NCBI RefSeq assembly: GCF_904830925.1
Contig: NZ_LR882967.1
Span: forward strand, 3,682,106-3,746,105
Length of the DNA: 64,000 bases
Direction of reading: 5' to 3'
Source of the DNA: Planktothrix pseudagardhii
GTDB taxonomy: Bacteria > Cyanobacteriota > Cyanobacteriia > Cyanobacteriales > Microcoleaceae
The notes under the pieces are model-generated. The model was not told the DNA's origin, did no database searches, and saw only the letters and a list, made by a program, of their open reading frames with translations. Below, piece by piece: positions 3,237 through 56,690 of this stretch (within the stretch, counting starts at the first letter, position 1; each line of letters starts with the position of its first letter). The position numbers and the translations under genes are program-made.

Positions 3237-4727
3237 ATGTCTATGACCGCTACTGCACCTGTTACAACGAAGTATGAAGCGATTATTGGGTTAGAAACCC
3301 ATTGTCAACTGAGTACGGAAACTAAGATTTTCTCCAATTCTTCCACGAAATTTGGGGCTGATCCCAATATGAATATTGATCCCATTTGTATGGGATTACC
3401 CGGTGTCCTCCCGGTGTTAAATGAAAAAGTCTTAGAATATGCCGTAAAAGCTGGGTTAGCCCTTAATTGTGAAATTGCTGCTTACAGTAAATTTGATCGC
3501 AAACAATATTTTTATCCTGATTTGCCTAAAAATTATCAAATTTCTCAATATGATTTACCGATTGCCGCAAAGGGTCAATTAGAAATTGAAATTGTTGAGG
3601 AAGATGGCAGTTCAAGACGCAAAATTATCGGCATTACTCGCTTACACATGGAGGAAGATGCGGGGAAATTAGTTCATGGTGGAAGCGATCGCCTTTCCGG
3701 TTCAACCTATTCTATGGTTGATTATAATCGGGCGGGAATTGCTTTAGTTGAAATTGTGTCTGAACCGGATATTCGTTCTGGACAAGAAGCGGCTGAATAC
3801 GCCCAAGAATTGCGTCGAATTATGCGTTATTTAGGCGTGAGTGATGGCAATATGCAGGAAGGTTCCCTGCGCTGTGATGTGAATATTTCCGTGCGTCCCG
3901 TGGGTCAAAAAGAGTTTGGAACGAAAGTTGAAATTAAAAATATGAACTCTTTTAGTGCCATTCAACGGGCGATTGATCATGAAATAGAACGGCAAATTGC
4001 AGCCATAGAAGCGGGAGAAAAAATTATTCAAGAAACTCGCTTATGGGAAGAAGGAAGTCAACGAACTATTAGTATGAGAACGAAGGAAGGATCAAGCGAT
4101 TATCGCTATTTTCCTGAACCCGATCTTCCCCCGATTGAAGTGTCTGTTGAACAATTAAAAACTTGGCAATCGCAATTACCTGAACTCCCAGCCGCCAAAC
4201 GTCATCGCTATGAAACAGAATTAGGATTATCCCCCTATGATACTCGTGTTTTAACGGATGATCGTCCGGTTTCTGAATATTTTGAAGCAACTATTGCCGC
4301 AGGTGCTAATATTAAACAAGCGGTAAACTGGATTATGGGGGATATTACCGCCTATCTAAAAAACGAAAAATGCAGTATCACTGAAATTGCCCTCAAACCC
4401 CAAGAATTAGCGGAGTTAATTGCCTTAATTGAAGCCGGAACGATTAGTGGTAAAATTGCTAAAGATATTTTACCGGAATTATTGGCAAAAGGAGGTTCTC
4501 CTAAAGCTTTAGTGGAAGCGAAAGGATTAATTCAATTATCCGATCCTAAAGCTTTAGAAGAAATTATCGATCAAGTTTTAGCCGAAAATCCCAAAGAACT
4601 CGAACAATATCATGCGGGAAAAACTAAACTTCAAGGGTTTTTTGTGGGTCAAATTATGAAGAAAACGTCAGGAAAAGCTGATCCTAAACTCACGAATCAA
4701 CTCTTAGGGGAAAAGTTAAAAAAATAA
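3237..4727 (+). CDS. gatB: Asp-tRNA(Asn)/Glu-tRNA(Gln) amidotransferase subunit B
   Basis: 496 aa; N-terminal [13 protein letters not shown] plus GatB/YqeY C-terminal region; full-length match to GatB family. Confidence 0.9.
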
Positions 4728-5338: not shown

Positions 5339-5453
5339 TATTGCAAGAGTGTCTATTGCAAGAGTGCCTATTGCAAGAGTGCCTATTGCCTATTCTCTAT
5401 TTGCTGTTCCCTGTTCCCTGTTCCCTGTTCCCTGTTCCCTGTTCCCTATTGTC
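5339..5453. repeat. compound tandem repeats: 14-mer CTATTGCAAGAGTG x3 followed by heptamer CTGTTCC x6
   Basis: direct reading; intergenic. Confidence 0.9.
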
Positions 5454-5585
5454 TTGTATATTTTAAGCATCAAAGGGTTCTTTTTGCAAATATTAATTCA
5501 CAATTTGTAGACAAGCTTAACCTAATCTGAACCGAACCTTTGCTACAATAGAAGTCAAGAGTTATCATAGGCAGTCTGTGTCAAT

Positions 5586-6107: not shown

Positions 6108-6250
6108 GTTTTAGGAGGCTATTATCTGTTGACAGTTTACAATTTGCTGTTAACCCTGAACTGTCAATAGATAACCCTTAAATTAAGCAGTTCTGTAAAT
6201 ACAGTGATTGACAAAAACTAATACAGCAAACTTAAAAAGTAAACTCTTCT

Positions 6251-6282
6251 TTTCTGTTCCCTGTTCCCTGTTCCCTGTTCCC
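6251..6282. repeat. heptamer tandem repeat TGTTCCC x4
   Basis: direct reading; the ORF-track start at 6208 reads through this repeat (FSVPCSLFPVPSS), so the real start is probably the ATG at 6292. Confidence 0.85.
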
Positions 6283-6291
6283 TCCTCTCTT

Positions 6292-7050
6292 ATGAAATTA
6301 CCCTCAACTTGGAATCTTCCCGCAACACTTCGCGATCGCTTTGGTCAAAAAAGTTTTGGTAAACAACGGGCGATGATAGCCGATGAGAATCTGTTATTAG
6401 TATTACATAAAGTTCCCAAACCGGGCGAGCGCCATCGAGAAGGGGTATTATTTTGGCGTAGACCCGATGGTCGTTGGGAATGCAGTAAAGGGGGTGTAGC
6501 GTTTCAACAATTAACCAATCATTTGAAAGAGTATCATTCAGCCGAAGAAGACTTAAATCAATTTTATAATATTGCTAAAACCGCAGAGGATTATTTTAAC
6601 CTTTTAGAGGCTATTACCCCCCTACAGTTAGCGACAGAAAACTTACACGCCACGTTACAAACAGCCAGAGAAGCAATTCCTCAAGATCGAGATATTCTGG
6701 ATTTAAGAGATTGGGCTTATGAAATTGAACGCACGTTAGATATTCTTTATATTAACACAAAAAATGCCCTGGATTTTAAAATCGCAACTGAAACAGAAGC
6801 CGCTGCTAAAGCTGGAAATCGGCTCAATACTTTAGCTGCAATTTTCTTTCCGCTTACGGCTATTTCCTGTGTATTTGGGATGAACTTAAAAAGCGGCTTG
6901 GAATTTCAATCTCCCCTAATGTTTTGGCTGATTTTTTTAGCCGGAATTTGGTTAGGGTTAGTTGTTAGACAATGGGTTTTTACAGGAACCTTTTCCCAAT
7001 TAAGCTTTAATAAATTAGCAATGGATTTAAAACAAGGGTTAAAAGAATAG
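6292..7050 (+). CDS. CorA-like divalent cation transporter family protein (start revised to ATG at 6292)
   Basis: C-terminal two TM helices with the GMN signature (VFGMNLK) typical of CorA/ZntB; the N-terminal domain is divergent. Confidence 0.5.
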   Translation: MKLPSTWNLPATLRDRFGQKSFGKQRAMIADENLLLVLHKVPKPGERHREGVLFWRRPDGRWECSKGGVAFQQLTNHLKEYHSAEEDLNQFYNIAKTAEDYFNLLEAITPLQLATENLHATLQTAREAIPQDRDILDLRDWAYEIERTLDILYINTKNALDFKIATETEAAAKAGNRLNTLAAIFFPLTAISCVFGMNLKSGLEFQSPLMFWLIFLAGIWLGLVVRQWVFTGTFSQLSFNKLAMDLKQGLKE

Positions 7051-7075
7051 CAATACTATTGTATTGTTAACTCCT

Positions 7076-7124
7076 GAACTGATAACTGATAACTGATAAC
7101 TGATAACTGATAACTGATAACTGA
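7076..7124. repeat. heptamer tandem repeat CTGATAA x7
   Basis: direct reading; same unit as the 2002-2055 array. Confidence 0.9.
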
Positions 7125-7125
7125 T

Positions 7126-7604
7126 TCAAGGTGTCGAAACAGTAGCAGCCGCTAGAAATTGCTCAATTTGATGGGGTTGCATAAAGGATAAATATTTCTG
7201 GGCAAATTCTGGAGGTAAAAGTTCAATTAAAAATTGATTTTCTACCCAAAATTCTATCACATCAAACGCATTTTCTCGATTACAGCGAACCGCTCGCCAT
7301 TCGTTTTCTGCTGCAATAGCTTCAATTTCCTCTTGAGTAATGGGAACAGAAAGAGCCAGATGGGTTGCACTATAGTTAGAACCCCAAGCATTATGGGTAA
7401 ATAGAACATCTTGATATCCGGTTCCCGGTGTTAATTCTGTGCCGAAGGGATAGACCTCAATGGCGGTTCCATATTCATCTAACATTAACACAAAATAACT
7501 ACCGGGGTGGGGGGAAAAGGAGCAAATTTTCCTTGAGAAATCTGGGCTAGAACTTCAGCGACTTGACGGGGATTTTTAGCTGGAATAGAAAGGTGATGAA
7601 TCAT
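7126..7604 (-). pseudogene. VOC/glyoxalase-like protein, apparently frameshifted in a poly-C tract (or homopolymer sequencing error)
   Basis: a 39-aa ORF (MIHHLSIPAKNPRQVAEVLAQISQGKFAPFPP...) starting at 7604 and the 121-aa ORF 7126-7491 are in different frames and overlap at CCCCCCACCCCGG; together they would give one ~158-aa protein. Confidence 0.4.
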
Positions 7605-11475: not shown

Positions 11476-11605
11476 CTTAATCATATGATAGCAAAAGGTT
11501 GATTACAATTGATTTGAGCTATGTTAATATTACAAGGAGATATAGCAATCAAAAATTAGGTTTTAATCATTTACAACTAACATAAAACAGCCAGAAGTAT
11601 TATCT

Positions 11606-11699
11606 CTGTTCCCTATTCCCTATTCCCTATTCCCTATTCCCTATTCCCCATTCGTAATTCGTAATTCGTAATTCGTAACTCCCTGTTCCCTGTTCCCTA
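11606..11699. repeat. compound heptamer tandem repeats (TATTCCC x5, ATTCGTA x4, TGTTCCC x2)
   Basis: direct reading; intergenic. Confidence 0.9.
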
Positions 11700-11707
11700 T
11701 AAAGGAA

Positions 11708-14440
11708 TTAATTTTGATCAAGCGTAAAATTTTTGTATTGTTGAATCGGAATCTCAATCATAAACTCTGAGCCTTCTCTAACTTGAGACGAACACTTTAA
11801 TTGACCGTGATGTCTTTCCACAACAATTTGATAGCTAATAGCTAATCCTAAACCCGTCCCTTTCCCGACAGGTTTTGTTGTAAAGAAGGGATCAAATAAT
11901 TTATTTTGAACCGCTTCCGTCATTCCCATCCCATTATCAATAATACGGATAATAACCTGTTCATTTTGAAGGATTTCAGTGGTAATAGTAATCCTAGGTT
12001 GCCAAGAATTTAAGGAATTACAAGGGATCTCCTCCTGAGAAGATTGAGAAAAAAGAGCCTCATCCCGTTCTAGTCTGCGCTCATGAACCGCATCAATCGC
12101 ATTCGTTAGTAAATTCATAAAAACTTGATTAATTTGACCTGCATAACATTCAACTAAGGGTAAATCACCATAATTTTTTATCACCTGAATCATTTCTTTT
12201 CCCCCTGCTTCTGATAAGCGATTTTGGAGAATTAATAATGTATTTTCTAAACCTTCATGCAAATTCACCTTTTTCACAGAAGATTCATCTAAACGAGAAA
12301 AATTGCGTAAGGATAAAACAATTTGTTGAATGCGACTCGCCCCTGCTTTCATCGAACTTAAGAGTTTGGGTAAATCCCGTTTTAAAAAATCTAAATCAAC
12401 CGTTTCCGTCACCTCTTGAATAGCAGGAACAGGTTCAGAATGATGCTGTTGATAAAGTTCAATTAAACTTAATAAATCCTCCATGTATTGGGTGGCATAA
12501 TCCACATTTCCGTAAATAAAATTAATCGGATTATTGATTTCATGGGCCACACCCGCCACCAACTGACCTAAAGAAGACATCTTTTCCGTTTGAATTAAAT
12601 GGGCTTGAGTTTGTTGTAATTTCTTTAACGTTGTTTCTAATTCTAAGGTTTGAGCTTTTGCTAACGTCGCCGCTTCACGGGTTTGGTTATAGAGTTGGGC
12701 TTGATTAATTGCGATCGCCACTTGCGCCGTTACAGCCTGTAATAATTCCACTTCAGAATCAGTCCAGCATCGAGGTTCCTGATGATTAGCACAGACTAAA
12801 ACCCCAATTTCTCCCATTTGGGTTTGAATAGGAAGAGACAGAACAGACACAAATCCAAACTGAAGTAAACAGGATTTTTCTTGAGAATCAGGAAGATTAA
12901 CAACATGATTAATTCGTCCTATGTTTAAATCTAAATATTGCTGTGACCAAACCCCAACTTCTTCTAAAGAATAGCGACCAACAATATGGGCAAAAGCCGG
13001 ATCTTTAGCTTCCGTTACAATTTCCCAATAAGCCGGAGTAAAATAGGGTTTAGACGGATTAGAGTAAACGGAATTAAAATTCATTTCTTCCCGGCGATAC
13101 CAACAAAAATAGCAGCGATCAACCTTCATTAACTCCCAAACTTGCAAAACGGTTGTTTCTAAAATTGTTTTCAAATCTAAAGAATTACGAATTTGGTTAG
13201 CTAAATGATTAATTAATTTTTCCTGTTGAGCCAATTGTCGGAACCGAACTTCCGATTGTGCTAATAATTCTTCCGCAACTTTTCGTTCTGTAATATCTTC
13301 ATAAGTTCCTAAAATTCCCACCACATTACCCTCTGGATCATGCAGAGGAATTTTATTAGTTTCTATCCAACATTGTTCGCCATTGGCATTCAATAAAGTT
13401 TCGATAATCCGATAACGGGGGGCATTAGCTGCCATGACTTCTTGATCAATTTTTCGATAATATTCAACTTCAGCTAAAGTCCAAGGTAAATCATAATCCG
13501 TTTTTCCAATTAAGTCTTGAGGAGAATTAAACCCCGCATCTAAAGCGACCTGTAAATTGCACCCTTGATAAACTGAATTTCGATCTTTCCAAAAAATCCG
13601 TTGCGGGATCGTATTCATAATTAACTTTAACATTTGTTGGGATTGTTCTAGTGCTTCCTCTACTTTTTTGCGATCATTAATATCAGTCAGTGTACCAATA
13701 TATCCCGTTACCTTCCCGAACGGATCTTTGATCGGAACCGCTTGACCTAAGACCCAAACCCCACTTTGATCTAATGAGTTTAAACGATATTCTGAAGAAA
13801 AAGGGCGTTGATTTTGAATCGCATTTGACCATTCTTGAATTAACCGTTCTCGATCATCAACATAAATGCTATCAACCCAACCTCTATTTAACGCATCTGA
13901 AGGTTGCTGTCCCGTAATTCGACATCCATATTCATTCACATATAAACAGTGTCCCGTTACATCCGTTTCAAACAAACCCACTGGACAAGCTTGCATTAAA
14001 GATTGATAACGCTGTTGGGTTGTTGTTAACGCTTGGTTGATGGCTTCAAGCTCTTTAGGCGTGCGAAGTTGTAATAATTTGGGAACTAAAGGAATAATTG
14101 TACAAGATGTAAAAATTGAAATTAAAGCCGTGATTGCCTTCAATCCTCCTGATAACCAATATAGAGGATACCAAAGGGTAAAAATCGCCATTAAATGGTT
14201 GAGTCCACAGGCAAAAATAAAGGCACTAAATAGGATAAAAACTTGAGGGTAGGGTAAATCTTGACGCTGGCGAACAAAATAAATTAATGAAATTGGGATG
14301 GAAAAATAAGCCAACGCAATCAACAAATCTGAAACAAGATGAAGCCCCATTAATTGAGATTGCCAAAGGTAGCAGGAACCATGAGGCATCCATGAAGCCA
14401 TTGCAACCAGTTTTTGTGAAATTATCCAGGTCAAGTTCAT
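11708..14440 (-). CDS. membrane-anchored multi-sensor histidine kinase (TM region, 2 PAS, GAF, HisKA, HATPase_c)
   Basis: 910 aa; N-terminal 4-5 TM helices; PAS-like repeats with TERK linkers; GAF; H-box AHEINNP; G1/G2 boxes (DNGMGM, GTGLGL). Confidence 0.85.
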   Translation of the reverse strand: MNLTWIISQKLVAMASWMPHGSCYLWQSQLMGLHLVSDLLIALAYFSIPISLIYFVRQRQDLPYPQVFILFSAFIFACGLNHLMAIFTLWYPLYWLSGGLKAITALISIFTSCTIIPLVPKLLQLRTPKELEAINQALTTTQQRYQSLMQACPVGLFETDVTGHCLYVNEYGCRITGQQPSDALNRGWVDSIYVDDRERLIQEWSNAIQNQRPFSSEYRLNSLDQSGVWVLGQAVPIKDPFGKVTGYIGTLTDINDRKKVEEALEQSQQMLKLIMNTIPQRIFWKDRNSVYQGCNLQVALDAGFNSPQDLIGKTDYDLPWTLAEVEYYRKIDQEVMAANAPRYRIIETLLNANGEQCWIETNKIPLHDPEGNVVGILGTYEDITERKVAEELLAQSEVRFRQLAQQEKLINHLANQIRNSLDLKTILETTVLQVWELMKVDRCYFCWYRREEMNFNSVYSNPSKPYFTPAYWEIVTEAKDPAFAHIVGRYSLEEVGVWSQQYLDLNIGRINHVVNLPDSQEKSCLLQFGFVSVLSLPIQTQMGEIGVLVCANHQEPRCWTDSEVELLQAVTAQVAIAINQAQLYNQTREAATLAKAQTLELETTLKKLQQTQAHLIQTEKMSSLGQLVAGVAHEINNPINFIYGNVDYATQYMEDLLSLIELYQQHHSEPVPAIQEVTETVDLDFLKRDLPKLLSSMKAGASRIQQIVLSLRNFSRLDESSVKKVNLHEGLENTLLILQNRLSEAGGKEMIQVIKNYGDLPLVECYAGQINQVFMNLLTNAIDAVHERRLERDEALFSQSSQEEIPCNSLNSWQPRITITTEILQNEQVIIRIIDNGMGMTEAVQNKLFDPFFTTKPVGKGTGLGLAISYQIVVERHHGQLKCSSQVREGSEFMIEIPIQQYKNFTLDQN

Positions 14441-18462: not shown

Positions 18463-20025
18463 CTAAGCTGGAACTTGAGTTTGCAGTTGAGCTTTTTGAG
18501 CTTTATATTCAGCTAACTGTTGTTCAATTTCGGTTTTGACAATTTGCCGATATTCTAAGAAATGCTCATTATGGGCGCATAAGGTTAAATAATGATCCCA
18601 AACGGCGGGATTATGTTTGATAATACTGAACAAATATTGCCAAAATTTCCAACGGGTTTTGCGTTTAAATCCTTGTCGCCAAATCACAGTGGCTAAGGCT
18701 TTTAAATCAATAAAACTCGGTATTTTACCCGGAGGATGACATTTAGGTGCGCCTAACTTTAAGAAACAGCGATAGGTGCGTTCTAAATACCGTTCAGGAT
18801 CATAAAGTTGCCAAAAGGTTTCAATATATTCTTCAGCAATTTCTTCAACGGGACGAGTGGGAATAAAGTTAATTAAAGTGGTTTGGTTAATATCAAACTT
18901 TTTGGGATTAATTAACCGTCCTTCTTTTTCTAAACGAGTCCATAGTGCCGTATTCGGTAAGGCTTGTAACATACTAAATAAAGCCGTTGGAATGGCAGCT
19001 TGTTCCACAAAGTCAATAATTCGAGAACCAGCACCGGGTTTTTCGCCATCAAACCCTAGAATAAATCCCGCCATCGGACGTAAACCAGCCCGGATAATTT
19101 TATCAACGGCTTCTAATAAGGGACTGCGGTTATTTTGATATTTTTTAGTCAGTTCTAAGCTACTGGTATCGGGGGTTTCAATGCCTAAAAATACCGCATC
19201 AAAATTACACTCTACCATCAAATCCATTAATTCAGCATCATCCGCTAAGTCTACGGAAGCTTCTGTATTAAACCGGAAGGGATATTGATGTTCGGCTTGC
19301 CAAATTTTTAAGGCTTTTAACAATAATTTGACATTGCGTTTATTGCCAATAAAATTATCATCCACCATGAACACCCCTCGTCGCCATCCCAGTTCATAGA
19401 GATAATCTAATTCTTTTAATAATTGTTCAGGGGTTTTGGTGCGGGGTTTGCGACCATAAAGCACAATAATGTCACAAAATTCACATTGAAACGGACATCC
19501 CCGTGAAAACTGTACCGACATGGAATCATAAGCATCCAATTCTAATAAGTCGTAACGGGGAATAGGCGTTAAGGTGACACTGGGTTTTTCTGGGGTACGA
19601 AATACCCCGGATGTTTCCCCCCGTTCAATCGCTTCAACAAACATCGGAAGGGTGATTTCCCCTTCATCTAAAATCAGAAAATCTGCTCCGGCGGTTTCAA
19701 TTTCATGGGGAACAGACGTGGGGTAGGGGCCACCAACAGCCACTAATTTTCCTCGTCTTTTCGCTTCTTGAATTTGAGCGATAAAATCGGATTTTTGAAC
19801 AATCATTCCTGAAAGAATGACTAATTCTGCCCAATCCCAATCCGCTTCACTCACAGAGGTAATATTGCGATCAACCAGTTTAAATTCCCAAGTTTGAGGC
19901 AAAATTGCCGCCACTGTAATTAATCCTAAAGGAGGTAATAAGACTTTGCGATTAACTAATTCCAGAATTTTTTCATACGACCAAAAAGTAGGAGGAAATT
20001 CAGGATAAATCAATAATGTTTTCAT
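18463..20025 (-). CDS. B12-binding domain radical SAM protein
   Basis: 520 aa; N-terminal cobalamin-binding Rossmann region, CPFQCEFC (Cx3Cx2C) radical SAM cluster motif. Confidence 0.75.
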   Translation of the reverse strand: MKTLLIYPEFPPTFWSYEKILELVNRKVLLPPLGLITVAAILPQTWEFKLVDRNITSVSEADWDWAELVILSGMIVQKSDFIAQIQEAKRRGKLVAVGGPYPTSVPHEIETAGADFLILDEGEITLPMFVEAIERGETSGVFRTPEKPSVTLTPIPRYDLLELDAYDSMSVQFSRGCPFQCEFCDIIVLYGRKPRTKTPEQLLKELDYLYELGWRRGVFMVDDNFIGNKRNVKLLLKALKIWQAEHQYPFRFNTEASVDLADDAELMDLMVECNFDAVFLGIETPDTSSLELTKKYQNNRSPLLEAVDKIIRAGLRPMAGFILGFDGEKPGAGSRIIDFVEQAAIPTALFSMLQALPNTALWTRLEKEGRLINPKKFDINQTTLINFIPTRPVEEIAEEYIETFWQLYDPERYLERTYRCFLKLGAPKCHPPGKIPSFIDLKALATVIWRQGFKRKTRWKFWQYLFSIIKHNPAVWDHYLTLCAHNEHFLEYRQIVKTEIEQQLAEYKAQKAQLQTQVPA

Positions 20026-20179
20026 GGAAAAAAGGGTAATTGTGAGTTAAAATGTTAACGTAGAATCTCAATTTGTTAAATTCTCCCTGAAAAATCCTCC
20101 TTGGGTAGCCGAGTTAGTCTCTCCGCGCTATCATAACAAACGTTAACATTTCATCAAATCATACAGGGTTATCACCACT

Positions 20180-20641
20180 ATGGCCGTTAAAGTCGGAGAT
20201 ATGGCTCCTGATTTCACCTTGACTTCGCAAACGGGCGAATCAGTTAGCCTTAAGGACTTCCAAGGAAAAAAATCCGTTGTCCTCTACTTTTATCCCAAAG
20301 ATGATACTCCGGGCTGTACGGCGGAAGCCTGTGGCTTTCGAGATAGCTATCAAGTCTTTAAAGATGCGGGTGCAGAAGTGATTGGGATTAGTTCCGATAG
20401 TACCCAATCTCATCAACAGTTTGTCAAAAAATACAATCTTCCGTTTATTTTGTTGAGTGATACTGGAAATAAAGTTCGTCAACTCTATGGTGTTCCAGCC
20501 GCACTGTGGATTCTCCCCGGTCGTGTGACATACATTATTGATAAAGACGGTGTGGTGCGACATCTGTTTGATTCGATGCTAGAGTTTCAGCGTCACGTTG
20601 ACGAAGCCTTAACCACTCTCAAGACTATTGCGGTTTCTTAG
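20180..20641 (+). CDS. bcp: peroxiredoxin Bcp/PrxQ (AhpC/TSA family)
   Basis: 153 aa; [19 protein letters not shown] active-site motif. Confidence 0.85.
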
Positions 20642-21794
20642 CCTAAATCCTAATCCGAGTGATCGGTTCTCGTCGATGAATATAGACTATCAAAATACCC
20701 TGACACACTTGAGGCAAGAATTCTCTCGAACTTTGTCCCAACTTGTCCAACTTTTACCTCAGTTGATGCTGGCTGTGGGGGTCGGCTATTTATTCAACGG
20801 GTTGCACTTTCCTGTGGGATGGCTGATTGGCCCGATGGTGGCGGGCATTCTTTATGCCGTGTTTCGAGGAAAACCCCAGCCCCTACCCCCGATATTTTTT
20901 ATCGTAGGTCAGGCTATTGTTGCGATCGCTACGGCTACAGGGTTTTCCTTGCATACCCTAGGGTTAATGAAAACTTACGCTTTTCCCCTGATAATCTGTA
21001 TTGTGATCACTGGGGGAATGAGTGTCTTAAATGGCTATTTATTAGGGCGTTGGGGTAATCTTGATCGGGCGACGGGGTTCCTCAGTTGTGTTCCTGGGGC
21101 GAGTTACAGTTTAATTGCTATGAGTGAGGCAATGGGAGCCGATGCGATCGCCGTTGCCCTGTTACAATATCTACGAATTTTATTAGTAGCTGTTATTGTT
21201 CCCACCATTGTGGGTTACTGGTTTGCAGGGGATGGGACTGTTCATTCTGTTTTGTCTATCTCAACTCCCAATATATCCGTATTACCTCCCCTTTTAAACT
21301 TTTTTCTGTTAGCGAGTTGTGGTGGATTAGGGATTGTTTTAGGAGAGAAATTTCGCCTCCCCTCTTCGTTGTTTTTTGGGCCTTTTTTGGTCAGCTTAAT
21401 TCTATTTTGGATACTGCCCTATTGTATTCAAATGCCCCCTTTAATCTTTACCATTGGGCTATTGTTTGTGGGGTTTTCTATAGGGTTAAAGTTTGACTGG
21501 AACAATGCTAAAACACTTTGGAAAGCTGTTTTAATTGAAATCATTTTAGTTCTACTATTAATTTTATTTTGTTTAGGCGCGGGTTATATCTTCCATGAAA
21601 TCACCCAAGTCGATACCATGACTGCTATATTAGGTTCCACACCGGGAGGAATTACAGCTATGATTGCAACCGTAATTCAACTGGGGGGAGACTCTGGAAT
21701 TGTATTAGCGATGCAAATGACCCGAATGTTATTGATCTTATTAATTAGTCCTTGGTTTGGAAATCTATTAATTAAAAATTCAAAGCTTATCTAA
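20628..21794 (+). CDS. AbrB-duplication family membrane protein (putative transporter)
   Basis: 388 aa, ~10 TM helices with internal duplication; resembles the pfam AbrB (AmoA-like) membrane family; alternative start at 20676. Confidence 0.45.
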
Positions 21795-21844
21795 CTTCAC
21801 TCCCTGGAAAAAACCGGGTTTTGGGTTTTTATGTTAACTTTATC

Positions 21845-22160
21845 TAATAGGTTTCTAAAAATACTTTTGTTTTTTAAAAGATTGTCAGGGAATCCTGATA
21901 TTTTATTAAAAATATTTCTCAAAAAGTTGACGAGATGATCGCGGTTCTGGTATAGTGTGAAAAACACCCTCCAAGGGTTTATTGTGTCTATAGCCCAAAA
22001 TTAAGTCTGAAACCATGATTCTTTCGTAAAATCTTTTGAGTTTCGCTGCCAATTGCTACCCTGCGATGCGCGAATTTTGGACAAAAATGATTGCCTGAGA
22101 AACAGGGGGATTGACAAAAAGCAAAATTTGTGCATTGAGGAACAAGGCATGGGCTTTTTC
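21845..22160 (-). repeat. copy B of a ~300-bp dispersed repeat (inverted relative to the copy at 42330-42640)
   Basis: manual alignment: ~80-85% identity over ~300 bp to the reverse complement of 42330-42640; includes the Cys-rich 63-aa ORF 21988-22179(-). Confidence 0.7.
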
Positions 22161-22237
22161 CCAAAAACCCGATTTCCACCTCGAACAGTTCACTCTTATT
22201 AAAAACCGTTATAATTTTACCCTAAACTCAATATATT

Positions 22238-23317
22238 GTGTCTGAACTGCTACAACAAACAGAATCCTATTTAAAACAAAAGATTTACCCCCAGGCTAAT
22301 CAAATAGATGAATGTTCAAAAGCCCTGAATCAAGCCTTTAAGGAATTAGGAGAATTAGGGGTTTTAGGATTAAGAATTCCCCAGGGTTGGGGAGGACGAC
22401 AACTCGACGCAGAAACCTTTTTTAAATTTCAAGAATTAATCGCCCGTTATTCAGGTGCCTTAGCCTTTTTGCAAACTCAACATCAAAGTGTTGCTGGGAT
22501 GTTAATTCAAAGCTCTAATACTCAATTACAAGCAGATTATTTACCCCGAATAAGTCATGGAATTGCTAAAATTGGAGTCGGTTTTTCCCATTTAAGACGA
22601 TTAGGAAATCCCTCAATTATTGCTATTCCCAGACCAGGAGGATATCAACTTAATGGCTTTGTTCCTTGGATAACAGGATGGGGAATTTTTGAAGAATTTG
22701 TAGTTGCTGCAATATTACCGGATGGTCAATCTGTTTGGGGGTTAGTCCCCTTTTGCGAACAAAAAATAGGAGAAAGTACGATAGCATTAAGTCCTCCCCT
22801 GTCCCTTTGCGGCATGACTTCCACTAATACCGTAACAGCAACCTTTACCCAATGGTTTTTACCAGCAGAAAAAGTCGTTTCTATTCATCCCGTTGGCTGG
22901 ATACAAGACAATGATCAAGCCAAAGTTCTACAAGCTAGTTTTTTAGTATTAGGCTGTGCAAGAGCCGGATTAGATATTGTAGAAACAGCCTTTCAAAAAA
23001 CAAAATTTTACGTTATTCAAGATGCCTTTAATTCTTTAAATCAAGAACTCAATCAATGTCGCTCTCAAATATTTTCGGCTCAAAATCATCCTCAAACTCT
23101 GAATACTTCACAAAAATATAAACTCCGCGCCTGGGCGATAGAATTAGCCGTGCGTTGTGCCCATGCTGCGATAACAGTTTCCAGTGGTGCGGCAAATTTA
23201 AACAGCAATTCTGCCCAAAGAATCTATCGAGAAGCGTTAGTTTTTACGGTATCCGGTCAAACAACAGAATTAATGAAAGCCACCCTAGAAAAAATTAAGC
23301 ATTGTAGGGTTTTATAA
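22238..23317 (+). CDS. acyl-CoA dehydrogenase family protein (GTG start)
   Basis: 359 aa; N-terminal alpha domain, central beta-barrel and C-terminal helical domain pattern of ACADs (GLRIPQGWGG..., YSGALAFLQTQ). Confidence 0.5.
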   Translation: MSELLQQTESYLKQKIYPQANQIDECSKALNQAFKELGELGVLGLRIPQGWGGRQLDAETFFKFQELIARYSGALAFLQTQHQSVAGMLIQSSNTQLQADYLPRISHGIAKIGVGFSHLRRLGNPSIIAIPRPGGYQLNGFVPWITGWGIFEEFVVAAILPDGQSVWGLVPFCEQKIGESTIALSPPLSLCGMTSTNTVTATFTQWFLPAEKVVSIHPVGWIQDNDQAKVLQASFLVLGCARAGLDIVETAFQKTKFYVIQDAFNSLNQELNQCRSQIFSAQNHPQTLNTSQKYKLRAWAIELAVRCAHAAITVSSGAANLNSNSAQRIYREALVFTVSGQTTELMKATLEKIKHCRVL

Positions 23318-23407
23318 TCTGTGTTGTAACTTGAATGGTTAGTCCACTTACCATTATGGTAGATTGCTATGATAGAATATCTCTAAAATCATTAATCTAT
23401 TGATTAA

Positions 23408-24235
23408 TTGAGAGCTATGTCACCACCCCAAGAAACACTCCTAAATGGGATAATATTACCGCCCACGCAAGATGAACTACCTTGTGACGATGGAGTCCCG
23501 ATGGAAACTCAACGCCATAAACTGCAAATGGATTTACTGATTGATCAGTTAATTCCTTGGTTAGAACAACGAGAAGATGGTTATGTTGGGGGAAATATGT
23601 TCCTCTATTTTAGTTTAGCCCAAGTGCGGAACCAAGACTTCAAAGGCCCTGATTTTTTTGCCGTATTAGGCGTTCCCAAAAAAGAACGAAAAAGTTGGGT
23701 CGTTTGGGAAGAAGGAAAAGCCCCCGATGTGATTATTGAATTATTATCACAAAGTACCGCATCAGAAGATAAAACCAACAAAAAATTGATCTATCAAAAT
23801 CAAGTTCGGGTTCCTGAATATTTTTGGTATGATCCCTTTAATCCCGATGATTGGGCAGGATTTACGTTAATTAATGGCAGTTATGAACCTATTTTTCCTG
23901 ATCACTTTAATCAATTATTCAGTCAACAATTAGGGTTATCCTTAGTGCGATGGTCAGGTGTTTACAAGACAGTTGAAACGGTCTGGTTAAGATGGGCAAC
24001 TTCAGAAGGTGAAATTCTGCCTACACCCGATGAATTATCCGCCCACAAAGCCGAACAAGCCCAACGTCAAGCCGAGGAAGCTCAACGCCAAGCCGAGGAA
24101 GCTCAACGCCAAGCCGAAGAAGCTCAACGCCAAACCGAAGAAGCTCAACAGCGTTCCCAAGAGTTAGAAACGTTGCTAAACCGTTACCGTCAACAGTTCG
24201 GCGAATTACCCGAATCTAGTTCTGATCAATTTTGA
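23408..24235 (+). CDS. Uma2-family (DUF820) putative restriction-endonuclease-like protein with C-terminal EEAQRQA repeats
   Basis: 275 aa; core PD-(D/E)xK-like Uma2 region (DVIIELLS); C-terminus carries four tandem heptad repeats encoded by a 21-nt DNA tandem repeat at ~24055-24150. Confidence 0.75.
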   Translation: MRAMSPPQETLLNGIILPPTQDELPCDDGVPMETQRHKLQMDLLIDQLIPWLEQREDGYVGGNMFLYFSLAQVRNQDFKGPDFFAVLGVPKKERKSWVVWEEGKAPDVIIELLSQSTASEDKTNKKLIYQNQVRVPEYFWYDPFNPDDWAGFTLINGSYEPIFPDHFNQLFSQQLGLSLVRWSGVYKTVETVWLRWATSEGEILPTPDELSAHKAEQAQRQAEEAQRQAEEAQRQAEEAQRQTEEAQQRSQELETLLNRYRQQFGELPESSSDQF

Positions 24236-32879: not shown

Positions 32880-34130
32880 TATAATGAAAAACCAAGTTTA
32901 GAAAAATCAATCAAAAGATGCCTGCTAAAAATCATTTAAATGAAAAGCAAGTAGAGAAACTACAGAAAAGATTGAAAGAGGAAGAAAATGGACAAATCCG
33001 AGAAAGAATCTTGATTTTATTATTGCTAAATGATGGTAAAAAGCAAAGTGAAATTGCCAAGTTTTTGGGCTGCTCATTAAACAAAGTATGTTATTGGTGT
33101 GTACATGGAGACCCTGACAAATTAGAAAGCCTAAAAGATGAAAGAATGAAAGGAAATTATAGAAAAGCCACAGACAAATATATAGAGATATTATTAGAAA
33201 CAGTAGAAAAAGAACCGGAAGAATTAGGATATGAATTTGGGAGATGGACAGGAGAAAGATTGGCAACTTATTTAGAACAAATCACAGGAATCAAATTAAG
33301 TAGTTCACAAGTGAGAAAGATATTAAAGGAAAAAAAGTATGTTTATTTGTGGGCAAAGTATAGCTTAGAAGAGAAAAGAGATCCAGAAAAAAGAAAATTA
33401 TTTAAAGATAAAATAGAAGAATATTTGAAAATAGCAAAAGAAAGTCCAGAACAATTACAGGTATGGTTTTGGGATGAAAGTGGATTTAATTTAAGAGTGA
33501 TAAAAAGAAAGAATTGGTGTAAAAAAGGGAAGAGGAAACAGATTAGAGGAGACAGGAGGAAAGGAAGAGTTAATGTGATGGGAGGATTGAGGTACTCGGA
33601 TAAAAAAAGATTTGTAGAATTTCTGGATAAAGGAAATGCAGATAATTTTTATCAAGTGTTAAAAAGTTTTTATCAAGAGCTAATTTATGAATGGGTATTA
33701 GCGGGAAATCAAGCAGAAGAATTTGTAGAAAAAGGAGCTAAGATCCTGATTATTCTTGACAATGCAAGTTTTCACAAAAAAGAAGAGTACCTAGAAAAAA
33801 TTAAAGCAGAAATGCCGAATGTCTATTTAGAATTTCTTCCAGCATATAGTCCAGATTATAATTTAATTGAATTAGTCTGGCATTCAGCTAAAGAATATAT
33901 AGCTCATCGACTCTTTAAATCAGTTGATGAGCTAGAGTGTTTATTACATCAGCTTTTAAATGAAGGACAGTTATCTATTAAATGGGGACGTAAACTTAAA
34001 AACAAAGGTAATGCTATAATCACAGTTTAAATACACAACAGCTTATCATCTTTAACTTTAGAGTAGAGCAAGATCAGATAATAACAACGAGAAGTTGGTT
34101 CAAATTTGAAGCTGGGTTTTCATTTTTAAA
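32880..34130 (+). mobile_element. IS630-family insertion sequence (~1.25 kb); ends approximate
   Basis: single DDE transposase ORF; imperfect terminal inverted repeats ATAATGAAAAACC / GGGTTTTCATTTTT; TA dinucleotides at both flanks consistent with IS630 TA target duplication. Confidence 0.65.
32918..34030 (+). CDS. IS630/Tc1-mariner family DDE transposase
   Basis: 370 aa; N-terminal HTH (KQSEIAKFLGCSLNKV); DDE region WFWDESGF...ILDNASFHK...YSPDYNLIE. Confidence 0.85.
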   Translation: MPAKNHLNEKQVEKLQKRLKEEENGQIRERILILLLLNDGKKQSEIAKFLGCSLNKVCYWCVHGDPDKLESLKDERMKGNYRKATDKYIEILLETVEKEPEELGYEFGRWTGERLATYLEQITGIKLSSSQVRKILKEKKYVYLWAKYSLEEKRDPEKRKLFKDKIEEYLKIAKESPEQLQVWFWDESGFNLRVIKRKNWCKKGKRKQIRGDRRKGRVNVMGGLRYSDKKRFVEFLDKGNADNFYQVLKSFYQELIYEWVLAGNQAEEFVEKGAKILIILDNASFHKKEEYLEKIKAEMPNVYLEFLPAYSPDYNLIELVWHSAKEYIAHRLFKSVDELECLLHQLLNEGQLSIKWGRKLKNKGNAIITV

Positions 34131-41104: not shown

Positions 41105-42280
41105 ATGAAAACTATAGCTGAAATTAACGATAAAATTCTTCAAAATCGTGCTGTTGTTTGGACTGTGGAGGAATTGAAAGCCAAAGTCACCCCCGATACT
41201 ATTCCCCAAATTGCTCAAGAGGTTGATGTCATTACCACAGGAACTTTTGAACCGATGGAAGCCTCTGGCGCGGTGATTAATTTAGGTCATACCGATCCCC
41301 CGATTAATATTAAAACCTGTTGGTTAAATGGGGTTCTTGCCTATAGTGGATTTGGTTCCGTTGATTTATATCTGGGCGCGAGTCAAATGATGGAAGATGG
41401 GGAAGAGGGAAATGAACAAGGGGGGGGTCATGTGATTGAAGATTTAATTGGGGGAAAATCGGTGCATCTCAGAGCATCAGGAGTGGTTTCTGATTGTTAT
41501 CCCCGGAGTTCTTTTGAAACTACAATTACCCGTGATACCATTAACCAATTTTATTTATTCAATCCTCGCAATCTCTATCAAAATTTTATTGTCGGAGTTA
41601 ATGGTGGCGATCGCCCCCTTTATACTTATTTAGGCCCCCTCCAACCCTATTTAGGAAATGCAGTTTATTCTAATCCGGGTGCAATTTCTCCCTTAATTAA
41701 TGATCCTGATTTACAAGTAATTGGAATTGGGACTCGGATTTTTTTAGGAGGCGGAATTGGCTATATTACTTGGGAAGGAACCCAACATTTTCCCCTGCAA
41801 AAACGCCTAGACAATCGCACCCCCATCGGCCCTGCTGCAACGTTAGCGTTAATTGGAGATGCAAAACAAATGAATCCTTATTGGGTTAGGGGTTGCTATT
41901 TTAAAAATTATGGCCCTTCATTAATGTTAGGTGTGGGGATTCCTTTACCCGTTTTGAATGAAGATGTGATTGCTCGTTGTGCAGTTTCTGATCAAGATAT
42001 TGTTGCACCCGTAGTGGATTTTGCCATCCCTCGACGGGTTCGTCCCACCTTTGGTTTAGTTTCCTATAGTCAACTGAAAAAAGGCAAAATTTCTATTGAG
42101 GGAAAAATGGTCAGAACTGCACCTGTAGCGAGTATTTCCCGTTCTCGTGAAATTGCCCAAGAGTTAAAAAAATGGATTGAATCAGGAACCTTTACCCTCA
42201 CAGAACCCGTTGCTTCTATTCCCTTAGATCGATCATTTCTTCCTCAGAATATTTGGGGTTCTCAAATTAGTTTAGATTAA
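41105..42280 (+). CDS. DUF39/COG1900 protein (homocysteine-biosynthesis sulfur-incorporation enzyme family)
   Basis: 391 aa; N-terminus MKTIAEINDKI...AVVWTVEELK resembles COG1900 proteins. Confidence 0.5.
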   Translation: MKTIAEINDKILQNRAVVWTVEELKAKVTPDTIPQIAQEVDVITTGTFEPMEASGAVINLGHTDPPINIKTCWLNGVLAYSGFGSVDLYLGASQMMEDGEEGNEQGGGHVIEDLIGGKSVHLRASGVVSDCYPRSSFETTITRDTINQFYLFNPRNLYQNFIVGVNGGDRPLYTYLGPLQPYLGNAVYSNPGAISPLINDPDLQVIGIGTRIFLGGGIGYITWEGTQHFPLQKRLDNRTPIGPAATLALIGDAKQMNPYWVRGCYFKNYGPSLMLGVGIPLPVLNEDVIARCAVSDQDIVAPVVDFAIPRRVRPTFGLVSYSQLKKGKISIEGKMVRTAPVASISRSREIAQELKKWIESGTFTLTEPVASIPLDRSFLPQNIWGSQISLD

Positions 42281-42329: not shown

Positions 42330-42640
42330 CACCTCTTCCATTCCTCTCTAATTGCATAAATTAGTAATTTTGTCAATACCCCTCTCCGTCGCTTAAGGAT
42401 TTACCCCCAAAATTGATGAATCGTAGAGCAGAAATTGAGTCAGGAAATCCAGATATTTTACGAAATAATAAGGGTTTTAGCCTCTGTTTTAGCAAATAGA
42501 CACAATAAACCCTTGAGCGGTATTTTCTAAATATACCAGAACCCCCATGCTGTCGTCAACTATTTGATAATTATTTTCAATAAAATATCAAGATTCCCTG
42601 ACAATCTTTTAAAAAACAAAATGATTTGAGAAAAATGATT
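42330..42640 (+). repeat. copy A of the ~300-bp dispersed repeat (see 21845-22160)
   Basis: manual alignment to the reverse complement of 21845-22160; contains a related but stop-interrupted short ORF (MNRRAEIESGNPDILRNNKGFSLCFSK). Confidence 0.7.
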
Positions 42641-42933
42641 ATAATAACTTAATAATAATTCCAAAATGAATTCAATTAAGGTTTAACAAGTTAAGCCATT
42701 CAGCATTTAACCGGATTTTAAGTTAAGGTTTTGTTAAATGGCGATCGCTAATCTTGTAGAAATTCAAGAAATGGTTAAACAAGGATCAAATACGTTGATG
42801 GGATGGGACAAGTAGATCATTAGTTTTGACAAAACGCTTTAATTGTAATGAATCAGATATACTTGTTTTGATCAAGTTAAACTGATCCAACCTTGAACCC
42901 ATTAGTCCGAAAACCTTTAGAATAAATTCTATT

Positions 42934-45685: not shown

Positions 45686-48208
45686 ATTAGGGGTCGAGGG
45701 GGGCTTTCCAACCCCCAACTCCCATTCAGAACCGTGCTTGCGACTTTCACCGCACACGGCTCCTAGTCTAGTTGACTGTTATCATCAGAGCATCCGGTTT
45801 CTTTTGGGTTATAAGACCCATCTGTTGCCGTTTTAATATCGTGACAATGGCGATGTAATAATTGCAGATTTTTATATTCATCTTTTCCGCCTAATGACGT
45901 TGAGATGATATGGTCGATTTCTGTAATATCTTCTGGGGTAAAGTATTGCCCACAGAAGTTACATTTGCATTTCTGCTTTTTAAGCAAAAATGCTACTCGT
46001 TTGGGAACATCATAAGATGTTCCTTTTCTTGTACTCCAATAAGTCCAGTTTCCGTCATAAGGTGATGCTTCAGGTTTTACGGTTACATGACGGGTAATAG
46101 GTGTTTCTGCATGGGTTAATAATTTAAAACCATCTTTGGTTTCAAAACTCCATGTTTTCTTACCATTATTTCTGAAGTAATTTTTCAGTTTCCCGTAACT
46201 TGCTTTACCGCATCTGCTGACTGTCCATGCTCTTAATCTTTGCCATGTGATGTGGTCTAAAGAGGAGAATGTTTCTTTGGAAACAACTTTGGAGTGATAA
46301 TTACACCATCCTCTTATAACAGGATTTAGGTTTTTGATTAGTGCGTATTGAGGTGCAGTTTTGTGTGTTTTAATCACTTCCTTCATCTTGTCCGCGTGAG
46401 CTTTGATTGCCTTCTTGCTGGGTTTTATTAAGGTTTTGAATCCTAATAATTTTCTTCCTCCACTTGATTTACCAGAATGGTGTTTGCCAACTGGATATTG
46501 TCGAAAGTTCCAACCCAGAAAGTCGAATCCTGGTTTTACCTTTTCATCATTTATTTCGATTTCTCTTAATGTATGACATATCCGAGTTTTAGCTGGTTTC
46601 AGTTCTAACCCGATGGGTTTTAGCCATTCTTCTATGGCAATTTGGCATTGTTGAATGACTTCTAATTGTGGGCTTACCACAATGAAATCATCGGCATATC
46701 TAATAACTTTGGCTTGAACAGTGCTTTTCTTTTTAGGGAATTTCTGTTCAACAGACCTAATCATTCCATCCAGTGCGATGTTGGCAAGTAAAGGACTGAT
46801 GACTCCTCCTTGCGGAGTGCCTGCCTCTGTTGCTTCAAATATGCCGTTATCCATCACTCCAGCTTTTAACCATTGTCTGATTTGTGCTTTTATAGTTGAT
46901 GGACAATCAATTTTGGACAGTAGGTATTCAGGGTTAATCTGGTCAAAACATTTCGAGATGTCAGCATCTAGGATGTAATATTCACCTTGATTGATACTTT
47001 GGAAAATTCGTGACATTGCGTCATGGGCTGAACGTCCGGGTCTAAACCCGTAGCTTTCACCCTCGAATCTGGCTTCCCATTGTGGTTCTAATGCAGATTT
47101 CACCAAGGCTTGCCTAACCCTATCGTTTATAGTTGGGATTCCTAAAGGTCTTTCCTCACCGTTGGGTTTGGGTATCCATTTCCTACGGAGTGGTTTTGCC
47201 TTTTGGTATTTACTCAGGTTTTGGGCAAGTTCTAGTCGTTGTTTGGGTGTGATAGATTTGATTCCATCAACCCCGGCTGTTTTCTTGCCTTGATTGTCTT
47301 GAGTTACCCTTCTAACTGCTAAGAGTTTGGCGTAGTATGACTTAACTAGAAGTTTTTGGAGCTTCCGAGCTTTCGCATTTTGTCCCGATAATGATGCCTG
47401 GTAAATTCGCTTTTGCAGCTTAAATACTTTTCTTTGGACTTTCGCCCAATTTACAGTATTCCATGCTTCCGTAGTCTTAAAACTCGTTTTCACCGTTTGT
47501 ACTGCTAATAACAACCTTACCTAACAACCAAACCGGAATCTATCGGCATATCCTAAACATTACATTTAGGCTTTAGCTTCTGACTCCATCTCTGGCCCTC
47601 ATAACATACGCCTTGGATTTGTGGCTACCTGACAGTATTCGACCACTGTAGGAGTATATGAGGGGTTTTAACGTTCCTTGAAAATGGGTTTATTGCCTTT
47701 AGATGTGTCCTATCCGCCGGGGTACTTTGGAAGTCTTTGTAAGTATTAGGTTAAGATACTTACCTTTTATAGATGGAAAGTTGATTCCTCTATCTTTTCC
47801 CCTTGTTCTTTTGAACGCAGTGTAACAAGTCAATTTCACTACTTAATAGTCACGACGGTTCAAGACGGACATTTACTTTCGTTCATCATGGGCAATTGGC
47901 TAGAGAAATTATCAAGTATTGACTTTACCCGATTTTCCCGTTATTCCCAGCTTCAGCGTTTTGATAATCAGTCTGACACTGTGGGAATTGCCTTATCTCT
48001 TTGGAATTGGATACCGTACTTTGAGGGTTCGGTAATCTGTACCATTGACTTCGAGATTGACCTTCCATTAAGGTCACATTTTCAAAGTTAAAATAGGCTT
48101 GATTGGATTTATTGGTGGGTTTAACTTTCCGTTTTACCAATTGTCTACACCTATTTCCCTGCTTACGTTTCGAGTTTGACCCTAGACTTTAGCAGGAACG
48201 TTTCGCAC
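45686..48208 (-). mobile_element. group II intron (~2.5 kb) with intron-encoded protein in domain IV
   Basis: 5' GTGCG on the minus strand at 48208; domain V GAGCCGTGTGCGGTGAAAGTCGCAAGCACGGTTC at 45729-45762 (minus); domain VI hairpin with bulged A ~8 nt before the predicted 3' end; the 3' boundary is +/- a few nt. Confidence 0.8.
45763..47514 (-). CDS. group II intron reverse transcriptase/maturase with HNH endonuclease domain
   Basis: 583 aa; RT blocks incl. YADD (IRYADDFIVV), X/maturase domain, C-terminal CxxC...HxxxH HNH motif. Confidence 0.9.
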   Translation of the reverse strand: MLLAVQTVKTSFKTTEAWNTVNWAKVQRKVFKLQKRIYQASLSGQNAKARKLQKLLVKSYYAKLLAVRRVTQDNQGKKTAGVDGIKSITPKQRLELAQNLSKYQKAKPLRRKWIPKPNGEERPLGIPTINDRVRQALVKSALEPQWEARFEGESYGFRPGRSAHDAMSRIFQSINQGEYYILDADISKCFDQINPEYLLSKIDCPSTIKAQIRQWLKAGVMDNGIFEATEAGTPQGGVISPLLANIALDGMIRSVEQKFPKKKSTVQAKVIRYADDFIVVSPQLEVIQQCQIAIEEWLKPIGLELKPAKTRICHTLREIEINDEKVKPGFDFLGWNFRQYPVGKHHSGKSSGGRKLLGFKTLIKPSKKAIKAHADKMKEVIKTHKTAPQYALIKNLNPVIRGWCNYHSKVVSKETFSSLDHITWQRLRAWTVSRCGKASYGKLKNYFRNNGKKTWSFETKDGFKLLTHAETPITRHVTVKPEASPYDGNWTYWSTRKGTSYDVPKRVAFLLKKQKCKCNFCGQYFTPEDITEIDHIISTSLGGKDEYKNLQLLHRHCHDIKTATDGSYNPKETGCSDDNSQLD

Positions 48209-51472: not shown

Positions 51473-51650
51473 TCTTTTGGTTTTCATTCCCTCCCTAGAG
51501 CAAAACTATCTATTGATCTCTAGGGCATTCAAAAATGGCAACCCAAAAACCGAACTGTATGAAACGTTAGTATTAGGTATTTCACCTCCTGATCTACAAA
51601 AGGCATCGCCATATTAACCCTTAACTATTACTCCCCCCCTCTCCCATTCT

Positions 51651-51749
51651 CCCGTCCCCTTGTCCCCCCGTCCCCTTGTCCCCTTGTCCCCCCGTCCCCT
51701 TGTCCCCCCGTCCCCTTGTCCCCTTGTCCCCTTGTCCCCAGCATGAGGT
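51651..51749. repeat. heptamer/octamer tandem repeats (CCCCTTGT / CCCCCCGT x ~12)
   Basis: direct reading; immediately upstream of the 51759 gene. Confidence 0.9.
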
Positions 51750-56569: not shown

Positions 56570-56577
56570 ATTTAGGA

Positions 56578-56616
56578 AAGAGGGAACAGGGAACAGGGAA
56601 CAGGGAACAGGGAACA
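56578..56616. repeat. heptamer tandem repeat AGGGAAC x5 (reverse complement of the TGTTCCC family)
   Basis: direct reading. Confidence 0.9.
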
Positions 56617-56690
56617 GAAAATAGAGGATAGTAAAAAGTGATTAGCTACCCGATAAAGGATTTTTAGCTAACATTTTTGAATTTCCTATA

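Follow-up and report, generated by a model that had tools for sequence, protein, structure and literature searches.

What does a repeat of about 330 bp do between the genes of Planktothrix pseudagardhii? The question is raised by the 64,000-nucleotide (nt) stretch of contig NZ_LR882967.1 analyzed here, which as a whole we call the window. Two copies of the repeat lie in it in opposite orientations, copy B at positions 21821 to 22149 and copy A at positions 42338 to 42664. An initial annotation, made from the letters of the window, read them as a short cysteine-rich open reading frame (ORF) followed by a conserved noncoding tail. It proposed a small gene family with a conserved 3' untranslated region (3'UTR) or small RNA (sRNA), an element resembling miniature inverted-repeat transposable elements (MITEs), or a regulatory leader. 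We find that the repeat belongs to an old noncoding family that is conserved in the pattern of a promoter, and that the promoter points the other way. Tentatively, we propose that the repeat is a noncoding transcription unit with its own promoter, specific to the genus and not described before, which would be an sRNA family or a leader.

An old noncoding repeat family

The repeat pair is real. MAFFT aligned positions 22160-21845 on the minus strand with positions 42330-42640 on the plus strand nearly without gaps, and a repeat search of the window returned inverted arms at 21820-21979 and 42507-42666. Moreover, BLASTN within the window matched copy B (22149-21821, minus strand) to copy A (42338-42664, plus strand) with an E value of 6e-47 (76.0% identity, 263 nt). 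Overall, copies A and B are 73 to 76% identical, short of the 80 to 85% first claimed. Four of the five shared blocks first quoted are exact in both copies, and the fifth, TTTTGTCAATCCCCCT, differs by a single base in copy A, which reads TTTTGTCAATACCCCT. The claim that the halves are unequally conserved stood, as in the orientation first annotated the 3' half is 80% identical and the 5' half is 68% identical. Similarity between the copies ends at the element boundaries. A profile hidden Markov model found copy B (E value of 1e-95) and copy A (2.5e-93) and no third copy in the 64-kb window.

Both copies are intergenic, as annotated. Copy B lies between the end of an AbrB-family (PF05145) membrane protein gene at 21794 and the start of an acyl-coenzyme A dehydrogenase-like (ACAD-like) gene at 22238 (22238-23317, plus strand), and the neighboring genes at this locus are all on the plus strand. 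Copy A lies between the end of a homocysteine biosynthesis (PF01837, HcyBio) gene at 42280 and the start of a patatin-like gene at 42934. The HcyBio protein of the window is approximately 100% identical to its P. pseudagardhii and P. tepida counterparts.

The initial annotation considered that these two copies might be the only ones and might flank a rearrangement, but further copies exist. When one genome from each of 185,579 species was scanned for exact occurrences of an 18-mer taken from the block with the highest conservation, two true loci were returned, L005 and L008, both in one Planktothrix metagenome-assembled genome (MAG). The other nine 18-mer matches had nothing else in common with the element, and a three-block pattern searched against a metagenome collection recovered the L005 locus alone once again. 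Copy A has orthologs in P. tepida (L014:5233-5562) and Planktothrix sp. FACHB-1365 (L019:4233-4561) that occupy the same position and are 89 to 92% identical. Copy B is syntenic, between the AbrB-family and ACAD-like genes, in L022, L024, L026, and P. serta PCC 8927 (L023) and thus keeps its position in five Planktothrix sources, window included. Identity to copy B is 96% in L022, a 99%-related strain, approximately 77 to 78% in L024 and L026, and 74% in P. serta. In L027, a more distant relative with an ACAD protein 72% identical, the site is a 175-nt spacer of heptamer repeats without the element. In P. agardhii and P. serta, the HcyBio gene has a different neighborhood, and the element is absent there.

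Ten copies were aligned, and they represent four paralog lineages (A, B, L005, and L008) and about four to six independent lineages. The copy number of the family is a lower bound. One assembly is the source of both L024 and L013 (the latter identical to L005), and that genome therefore carries at least two copies, one B type and one L005 type. If the ME2000 MAG with L008 is of the same species, it has at least three. Across Planktothrix, at least four paralogous loci are seen.

The family is older than the species that carry it. Within a species, paralogs (the B copy of L024, L005, and L008) are 66 to 68% identical, whereas B orthologs are 77 to 78% identical between species (74% for P. serta). 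Because paralogs are more diverged than orthologs, the duplications predate the species, each copy has been kept, and concerted evolution is absent. A recent segmental duplication was likewise rejected, as further paralogs and orthologs exist, copies A and B are 73% identical versus 74 to 96% for B orthologs, and the flanks are dissimilar. The element is 74 to 78% identical where the 4-fold-degenerate sites of the ACAD gene are 65 to 67% identical, and the spacer that flanks it is unalignable between species, with large indels. The ten copies themselves align over approximately 330 columns with a single 1-nt indel. No frame longer than 36 codons is open across all ten on either strand, and the 36-codon stretch crosses the indel. 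As read from these alignments, the family is a small, old, low-copy-number set of noncoding cassettes of approximately 330 bp that is confined, as far as sampled, to Planktothrix.

The divergence of copy B from its nearly identical relative L022 was considered as a property of the element itself and rejected, as it is explained by a strain-level recombination mosaic at 19414-22016. The window and the L022 contig (Logan contig SRR32020625) differ at 155 positions within 19414-22016 and at only 6 within 22017-23719. The switch point falls near 22016, inside copy B.

Promoter-shaped conservation and the predicted transcript

How the element is read depends on a promoter. In copy B, a predicted promoter at 21927-21956 on the plus strand consists of a -35 element TTGACG (21927-21932), an 18-nt spacer, and an extended -10 element TGgTATAGT (21948-21956), with a predicted start near 21963. 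In copy A, its counterpart at 42530-42559 on the minus strand consists of TTGACG (42559-42554), an 18-nt spacer, and TGgTATATT (42538-42530), with a predicted start near 42523. Start sites were placed approximately 7 nt downstream of the -10 element. In a consensus scan, both were sigma-70-type sites with 10 of 12 consensus matches and a TG before the -10 element. Among the ten copies, the -35 TTGACG, the TG, and positions 1, 2, 4, and 6 of the -10 hexamer are invariant (consensus TTGACG-18-TGgTAnnnT). The hexamers are TATATT, TAAATT, TATAGT, TACAAT, TATACT, and TACACT, such that positions 3 and 5 vary, as do the bases just downstream. Invariant positions 1, 2, 4, and 6 with variable positions 3 and 5 are what would be expected of a working -10 element. 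The conserved promoter is, by this comparison of copies, the sole clear functional signature of the element.

The direction of the promoter inverts the layout first annotated. What had been called a noncoding 3' tail corresponds to the promoter and its upstream region, and what had been called a coding 5' half corresponds to the part that would be transcribed. Thus, the idea of a leader or an sRNA survives, but on the strand opposite to that annotated. Promoter candidates in the orientation first annotated (TAGACA-18-TATTTT and CTGACA-16-AATGAT) were rejected, as their -10 elements are not conserved among the copies.

Upstream of the promoter, approximately 130 nt are conserved, and they include the block TTTTGTTTTTTAAAAGATT, an AT-rich palindrome near -55, and, centered near -70, an 18-bp palindrome-like site, TGTCAGG-N4-CCTGAYA. 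The upstream region of copy B (21865-21926, plus strand) opens with the A/T block TTTTGTTTTTTAAAAGATT at 21865-21883, continues with the palindrome at 21883-21900, and ends in an AT-rich block that reaches the -35 element. The palindrome, TGTCAGG-GAAT-CCTGATA, is centered near -70 and was also flagged as a hairpin. In copy A, the upstream region (42560-42621, minus strand) contains the palindrome-like TGTCAGGGAATCTTGATA at 42586-42603 and the A/T block at 42603-42621. As the signal of a wider regulon in the window, the palindrome was rejected, with 8 matches outside the element versus 3.6 +/- 2.2 expected, a difference that is not significant.

A highly conserved block just downstream of the promoter is a 19-mer, CAAGGGTTTATTGTGTCTA, at 21972-21990 on the plus strand in copy B, or approximately +9 to +27 of the predicted transcript, and at 42497-42515 on the minus strand in copy A. 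The 19-mer is invariant in 6 of 10 copies, and the remaining 4 differ by one base. A 15/16 match to it at 4631-4646 was discarded, as it falls inside a protein-coding gene and is no better than expected by chance. After the 19-mer come approximately 120 nt that are paralog specific and then the common motifs AATTTTGG, TTGACAAAA, and AATTTRTGCA. In the body of copy B (21991-22134, plus strand), the conserved islands are TTTCGTAAAAT (22022-22032), AATTTTGG (22073-22080), TTGACAAAA (22111-22119), and AATTTGTGCA (22125-22134), and in that of copy A (42353-42496, minus strand), they are TTGACAAAA (42368-42376) and AATTTATGCA (42353-42362). The upstream palindrome region of copy A (42586-42603) also recurs in inverted orientation within the body of that copy, at 42439-42456. 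The resulting inverted repeat of approximately 23 to 29 nt is significant in the A lineage alone.

We note that one further contig, L020 (Logan contig SRR21620670, 1,627 nt), includes HcyBio and breaks off within copy A, at the equivalent of window position ~42500. The contig end is approximately 23 nt from the predicted start site and may mark a transcript boundary if the run is RNA-seq.

What the promoter faces differs by locus. The promoter of copy B faces the ACAD-like gene in the window and at all four orthologous loci. The distance from the predicted start to that gene is 275 nt in the window, approximately 200 nt in L024 and L026, and approximately 600 nt in P. serta, where an extra stretch of approximately 300 nt (L023:2700-3000) with a GC-rich palindrome, GTAGGGGCGAGGCGCGCCTCGCCCCTAC, lies between the element and the ACAD start. 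The other species are without this stretch, which is probably another small repeat family. At copy A, L005, and L008, the promoter points at a convergent gene whose 3' end is 240 to 270 nt away.

How the cassette might work can be sketched from this arrangement. Each copy would be transcribed from the strand opposite to the orientation first annotated. The roughly 130 nt of AT-rich upstream DNA, with the palindrome-like site near -70, may bind a common regulator, and the sigma-70-type promoter with its extended -10 element, if it fires as its conservation suggests, would drive a transcribed segment of approximately 190 nt. The transcript would begin with the near-invariant 19-mer, perhaps a pairing or recognition segment, continue with the paralog-specific stretch, and end with the short common motifs. 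We infer that the product is a mostly unstructured noncoding RNA. From copy A, L005, and L008, the RNA would be a free-standing sRNA heading toward the 3' end of the convergent gene, and from copy B, it would be, or double as, the 5' leader of the ACAD-like gene at 22238. We speculate further, and with more doubt, that the cassettes may constitute a genus-specific regulon, in which paralogous noncoding RNAs with a 19-nt 5' recognition segment would be co-induced by one regulator at the -70 palindrome and the rigid 330-bp spacing would stem from the wrapping of the promoter in a nucleoprotein complex.

Several observations weigh against a noncoding transcription unit. One match to a promoter consensus, taken alone, does not exceed chance in AT-rich spacers, with 2 found versus 2.7 expected, and the argument therefore rests on the pattern of conservation, drawn from only four to six or so independent lineages. 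A co-directional gene lies downstream of the promoter at copy B only. Moreover, conserved RNA structure is absent. With ten sequences, RNAalifold gave a consensus of -2.2 kcal/mol for the predicted transcript of approximately 180 nt and -1.1 kcal/mol for its first 72 nt, with covariation terms that were positive or zero. With six sequences, the covariation terms were +3.4 and +4.8 kcal/mol, which is unfavorable, on both strands. A search of all column pairs for covariation returned only A/U-rich runs of 4 to 7 bp and no covarying helices, although such tests have little power because the independent lineages are so few. A consensus fold is all but absent. Folding energies were ordinary on both strands, with z scores of -1.45 and -1.25 for copy A and -0.28 and +0.76 for copy B. 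No intrinsic terminator, meaning a hairpin with a U tract, occurs at a shared position within +330, and terminator candidates are lineage specific only, such as one at +52 in copy A. Finally, near-zero indels in a weakly conserved body are unexplained by an unstructured RNA, and a constraint on spacing at the level of DNA fits them better.

Particular helices and families were also considered. Candidate helices AAGGGTTT/AAACCCTT and TCGTA/TGCGA were rejected, as were a GC hairpin before TTGACAAAA and AAUU/AAUU plus flanks, for all are broken in several lineages. Rfam 15 at gathering thresholds gave no match in either repeat, and its only match in the window was a group II intron at 45686-45764. 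When the cutoff was relaxed to an E value of 10 or less, the best matches in the two repeats had E values of 0.75 to 8.5, far below gathering scores.

Alternatives and other repeats of the window

The main rival is that the element acts as DNA. The cassette would then be a rigidly spaced array of protein-binding sites that acts through DNA architecture, for example by forming loops, as a regulated promoter region, or as an accessory site for recombination, and any RNA would be incidental. Candidate sites might be the palindrome near -70, the AT palindrome near -55, the TGACAAT/TGTCAAT motifs separated by 228 bp, and the block TGCATAAATT at the left end. Such a module would account for one 1-nt indel among ten copies of approximately 330 nt despite 25 to 35% substitution divergence. 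It is also in keeping with the lack of an RNA structure signal on both strands, with the conserved palindromic sites upstream of the promoter, and with a body that, against P. serta, is no better conserved than 4-fold-degenerate sites (0.68 versus 0.67). In the A lineage, moreover, the palindrome region is inversely duplicated approximately 140 bp away, such that the two flank the promoter. The inverted duplicate, however, is significant in that lineage only, the palindrome shows no clear enrichment in the rest of the window, and a binding protein is neither known nor encoded beside any copy. We consider a DNA module unlikely, and it overlaps the transcription unit that we favor rather than excluding it.

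Copy B might instead be a plain promoter with a long 5' leader of the ACAD-like gene, and the other copies might be old duplicates without function. The constant orientation of the copy B promoter toward that gene, in the window and at the four orthologous loci, agrees with a leader, as does the end of the element in L024 and L026 only approximately 20 to 30 nt ahead of the ACAD start codon. However, the element lies at a variable distance, approximately 30 to 400 nt, from the start of the ACAD gene. Moreover, copy A, L005, and L008 face convergent genes yet have retained the promoter, the 19-mer, and the spacing since before the species split. A leader of one gene with functionless duplicates elsewhere is therefore quite unlikely.

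A fixed relic of a mobile element, either a MITE or the end of an insertion sequence (IS) with an outward promoter, might have spread in the Planktothrix ancestor. The repeat is dispersed, multicopy, and noncoding, is about as large as a MITE, and has an internal promoter; the A-lineage copies contain an inverted repeat, and the more distant relative L027 has a spacer without the element. Mobility has left no mark at the ends, however. Terminal inverted repeats are absent from the ends of six copies compared (four paralogs and two orthologs), as the initial annotation had noted, and direct repeats that would indicate target-site duplications were absent when the boundaries of the six copies were checked. 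Related sequence was absent from plasmid, phage, and viral collections. Furthermore, copy number is low, with two copies in the 64-kb window, the sites are old and syntenic across species, no empty site was found inside the genus, and the paralogs predate the species. The MITE proposed at first is thus rejected, and a mobile relic of any kind is very unlikely.

An IS200/IS605-family tnpB element does lie near copy A, approximately 170 nt downstream in the orientation first annotated (window 42813-42905; L019:4700-5226; L014:5690-6075). A link between it and the repeat was rejected, as the insertion is a separate, later event downstream of the repeat. Three genomes present three extents of tnpB: it is apparently intact in FACHB-1365, with the HTH_OrfB_IS605 N terminus at the contig end, it is reduced in P. 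tepida to a C-terminal Cas12f1-like_TNB fragment and the right end only, and it is left in the window as a stub of approximately 90 nt made up of the left and right ends. Between copy A and the stub, a 26-codon ORF, MAIANLVEIQEMVKQGSNTLMGWDK, occupies 42729-42809 on the plus strand but is not supported as a gene. P. tepida and FACHB-1365 conserve its DNA well, and the IS insertion in FACHB-1365 falls exactly at the ORF stop codon.

Finally, a family of small cysteine-rich proteins with a conserved 3'UTR has next to no chance of being correct: the 63-amino-acid ORF with a GTG start (21988-22179, minus strand) is present in copy B and intact elsewhere only in the 96% identical L022 copy, but its frame, once thought conserved, is interrupted by two stops in copy A, one in the B copy of L024, and two in P. 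serta, differences between B orthologs fall evenly on codon positions 1, 2, and 3 (15/14/16, 14/15/16, and 19/23/24), and it has no Pfam match, which leaves it a chance ORF outside the functional element.

Planktothrix forms toxic freshwater blooms, and its regulatory RNAs are scarcely known. Papers searched on Planktothrix sRNA and noncoding RNA contained nothing on this element and no match to fragments of the 19-mer. The cassette offers a candidate, open to experimental test, for an sRNA family restricted to one lineage and for the regulator in control of it, and its analysis removes one false small-protein call and one false mobile-element call from the annotation. Were the regulon to exist, a major bloom former and toxin producer among the cyanobacteria would have a regulatory circuit not yet characterized. 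Only if the rigidly spaced DNA module were true would the element represent a new kind of biology.

The window, with a GC content of 38.8% and 25 GCGATCGC sites, contains other repeats and mobile elements. The 20 kb that separate the two copies include an IS630-like transposase gene with DDE_3 and helix-turn-helix domains (32918-34030, plus strand), and the remaining genes there are ordinary and encode an FkbM methyltransferase/GT4 protein, GT41-TPR proteins, a pilin-like protein, and an S-adenosylmethionine methyltransferase. The group II intron lies at 45686-47514 on the minus strand and possibly extends to ~48100. Its Rfam match comprises domains V/VI (45686-45764, 57.9 bits), and its encoded protein (45763-47514, 583 amino acids) has RVT_N, RVT_1, GIIM, and HNH domains. 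Tandem heptamer arrays (AACTGAT/AACTGAC and CTGTTCC/CTATTCC) occupy 1987-2077, 5372-5468, 6236-6304, 7063-7139, 11588-11712, and 56573-56646. They are located in spacers, some are mutually inverted, and they are short tandemly repeated repetitive (STRR) sequences typical of filamentous cyanobacteria. Lastly, a C-rich repeat with an 8-nt period (CCCGTCCC/CTTGTCCC) and a tandem repeat with a 15/30-nt period (CGTTCGGGGATAATCCGTTCAGAAATCGAC) are found at 51635-51746 and 57536-57775.

Comparison with described systems

The cassette has features in common with several known systems. Like end remnants of IS200/IS605 elements or the omega-RNA regions of TnpB, copy A adjoins a tnpB element. Unlike in such remnants, the insertion begins approximately 170 nt past the repeat and has no sequence in common with it, and tnpB is absent from the vicinity of copies B, L005, and L008.

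Invertons, or invertible promoters, include fimS of Escherichia coli and the capsule promoters of Bacteroides. As in an inverton, the A-lineage promoter lies between inverted repeats of approximately 23 to 29 nt that are approximately 140 bp apart. Unlike invertons, the ten copies are collinear with no orientation variant, no recombinase gene is nearby, and in the other lineages (B, L005, and L008), the repeat is missing or degenerate. An inverton was therefore rejected.

Nezha of the Nostocales is a cyanobacterial MITE, and like such elements, the cassette is a short, dispersed, noncoding, AT-rich intergenic repeat. Unlike them, it has neither terminal inverted repeats nor target-site duplications, it occurs in two to a few copies rather than in tens or hundreds, and it is fixed at syntenic sites and predates the species.

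Some bacteria carry paralogous sRNA families that have a common promoter architecture and a common 5' segment, such as Qrr1-5 of Vibrio, OmrA/OmrB of the enterobacteria, and Yfr2 of the cyanobacteria. The Planktothrix element differs from them in that it has no shared Rho-independent terminator, no conserved stem-loops, and no match in Rfam 15, cyanobacterial families included. Moreover, its predicted RNA (approximately 190 nt) and upstream region (approximately 130 nt) are unusually long. Like them, it has several dispersed intergenic copies per genome, each retained across species, and it is best conserved in the promoter, the upstream region, and a short block at the predicted 5' end of the RNA, with a middle that is paralog specific. 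The element is a member of no described family, and its architecture resembles that of paralogous sRNA families such as Qrr and OmrA/B.

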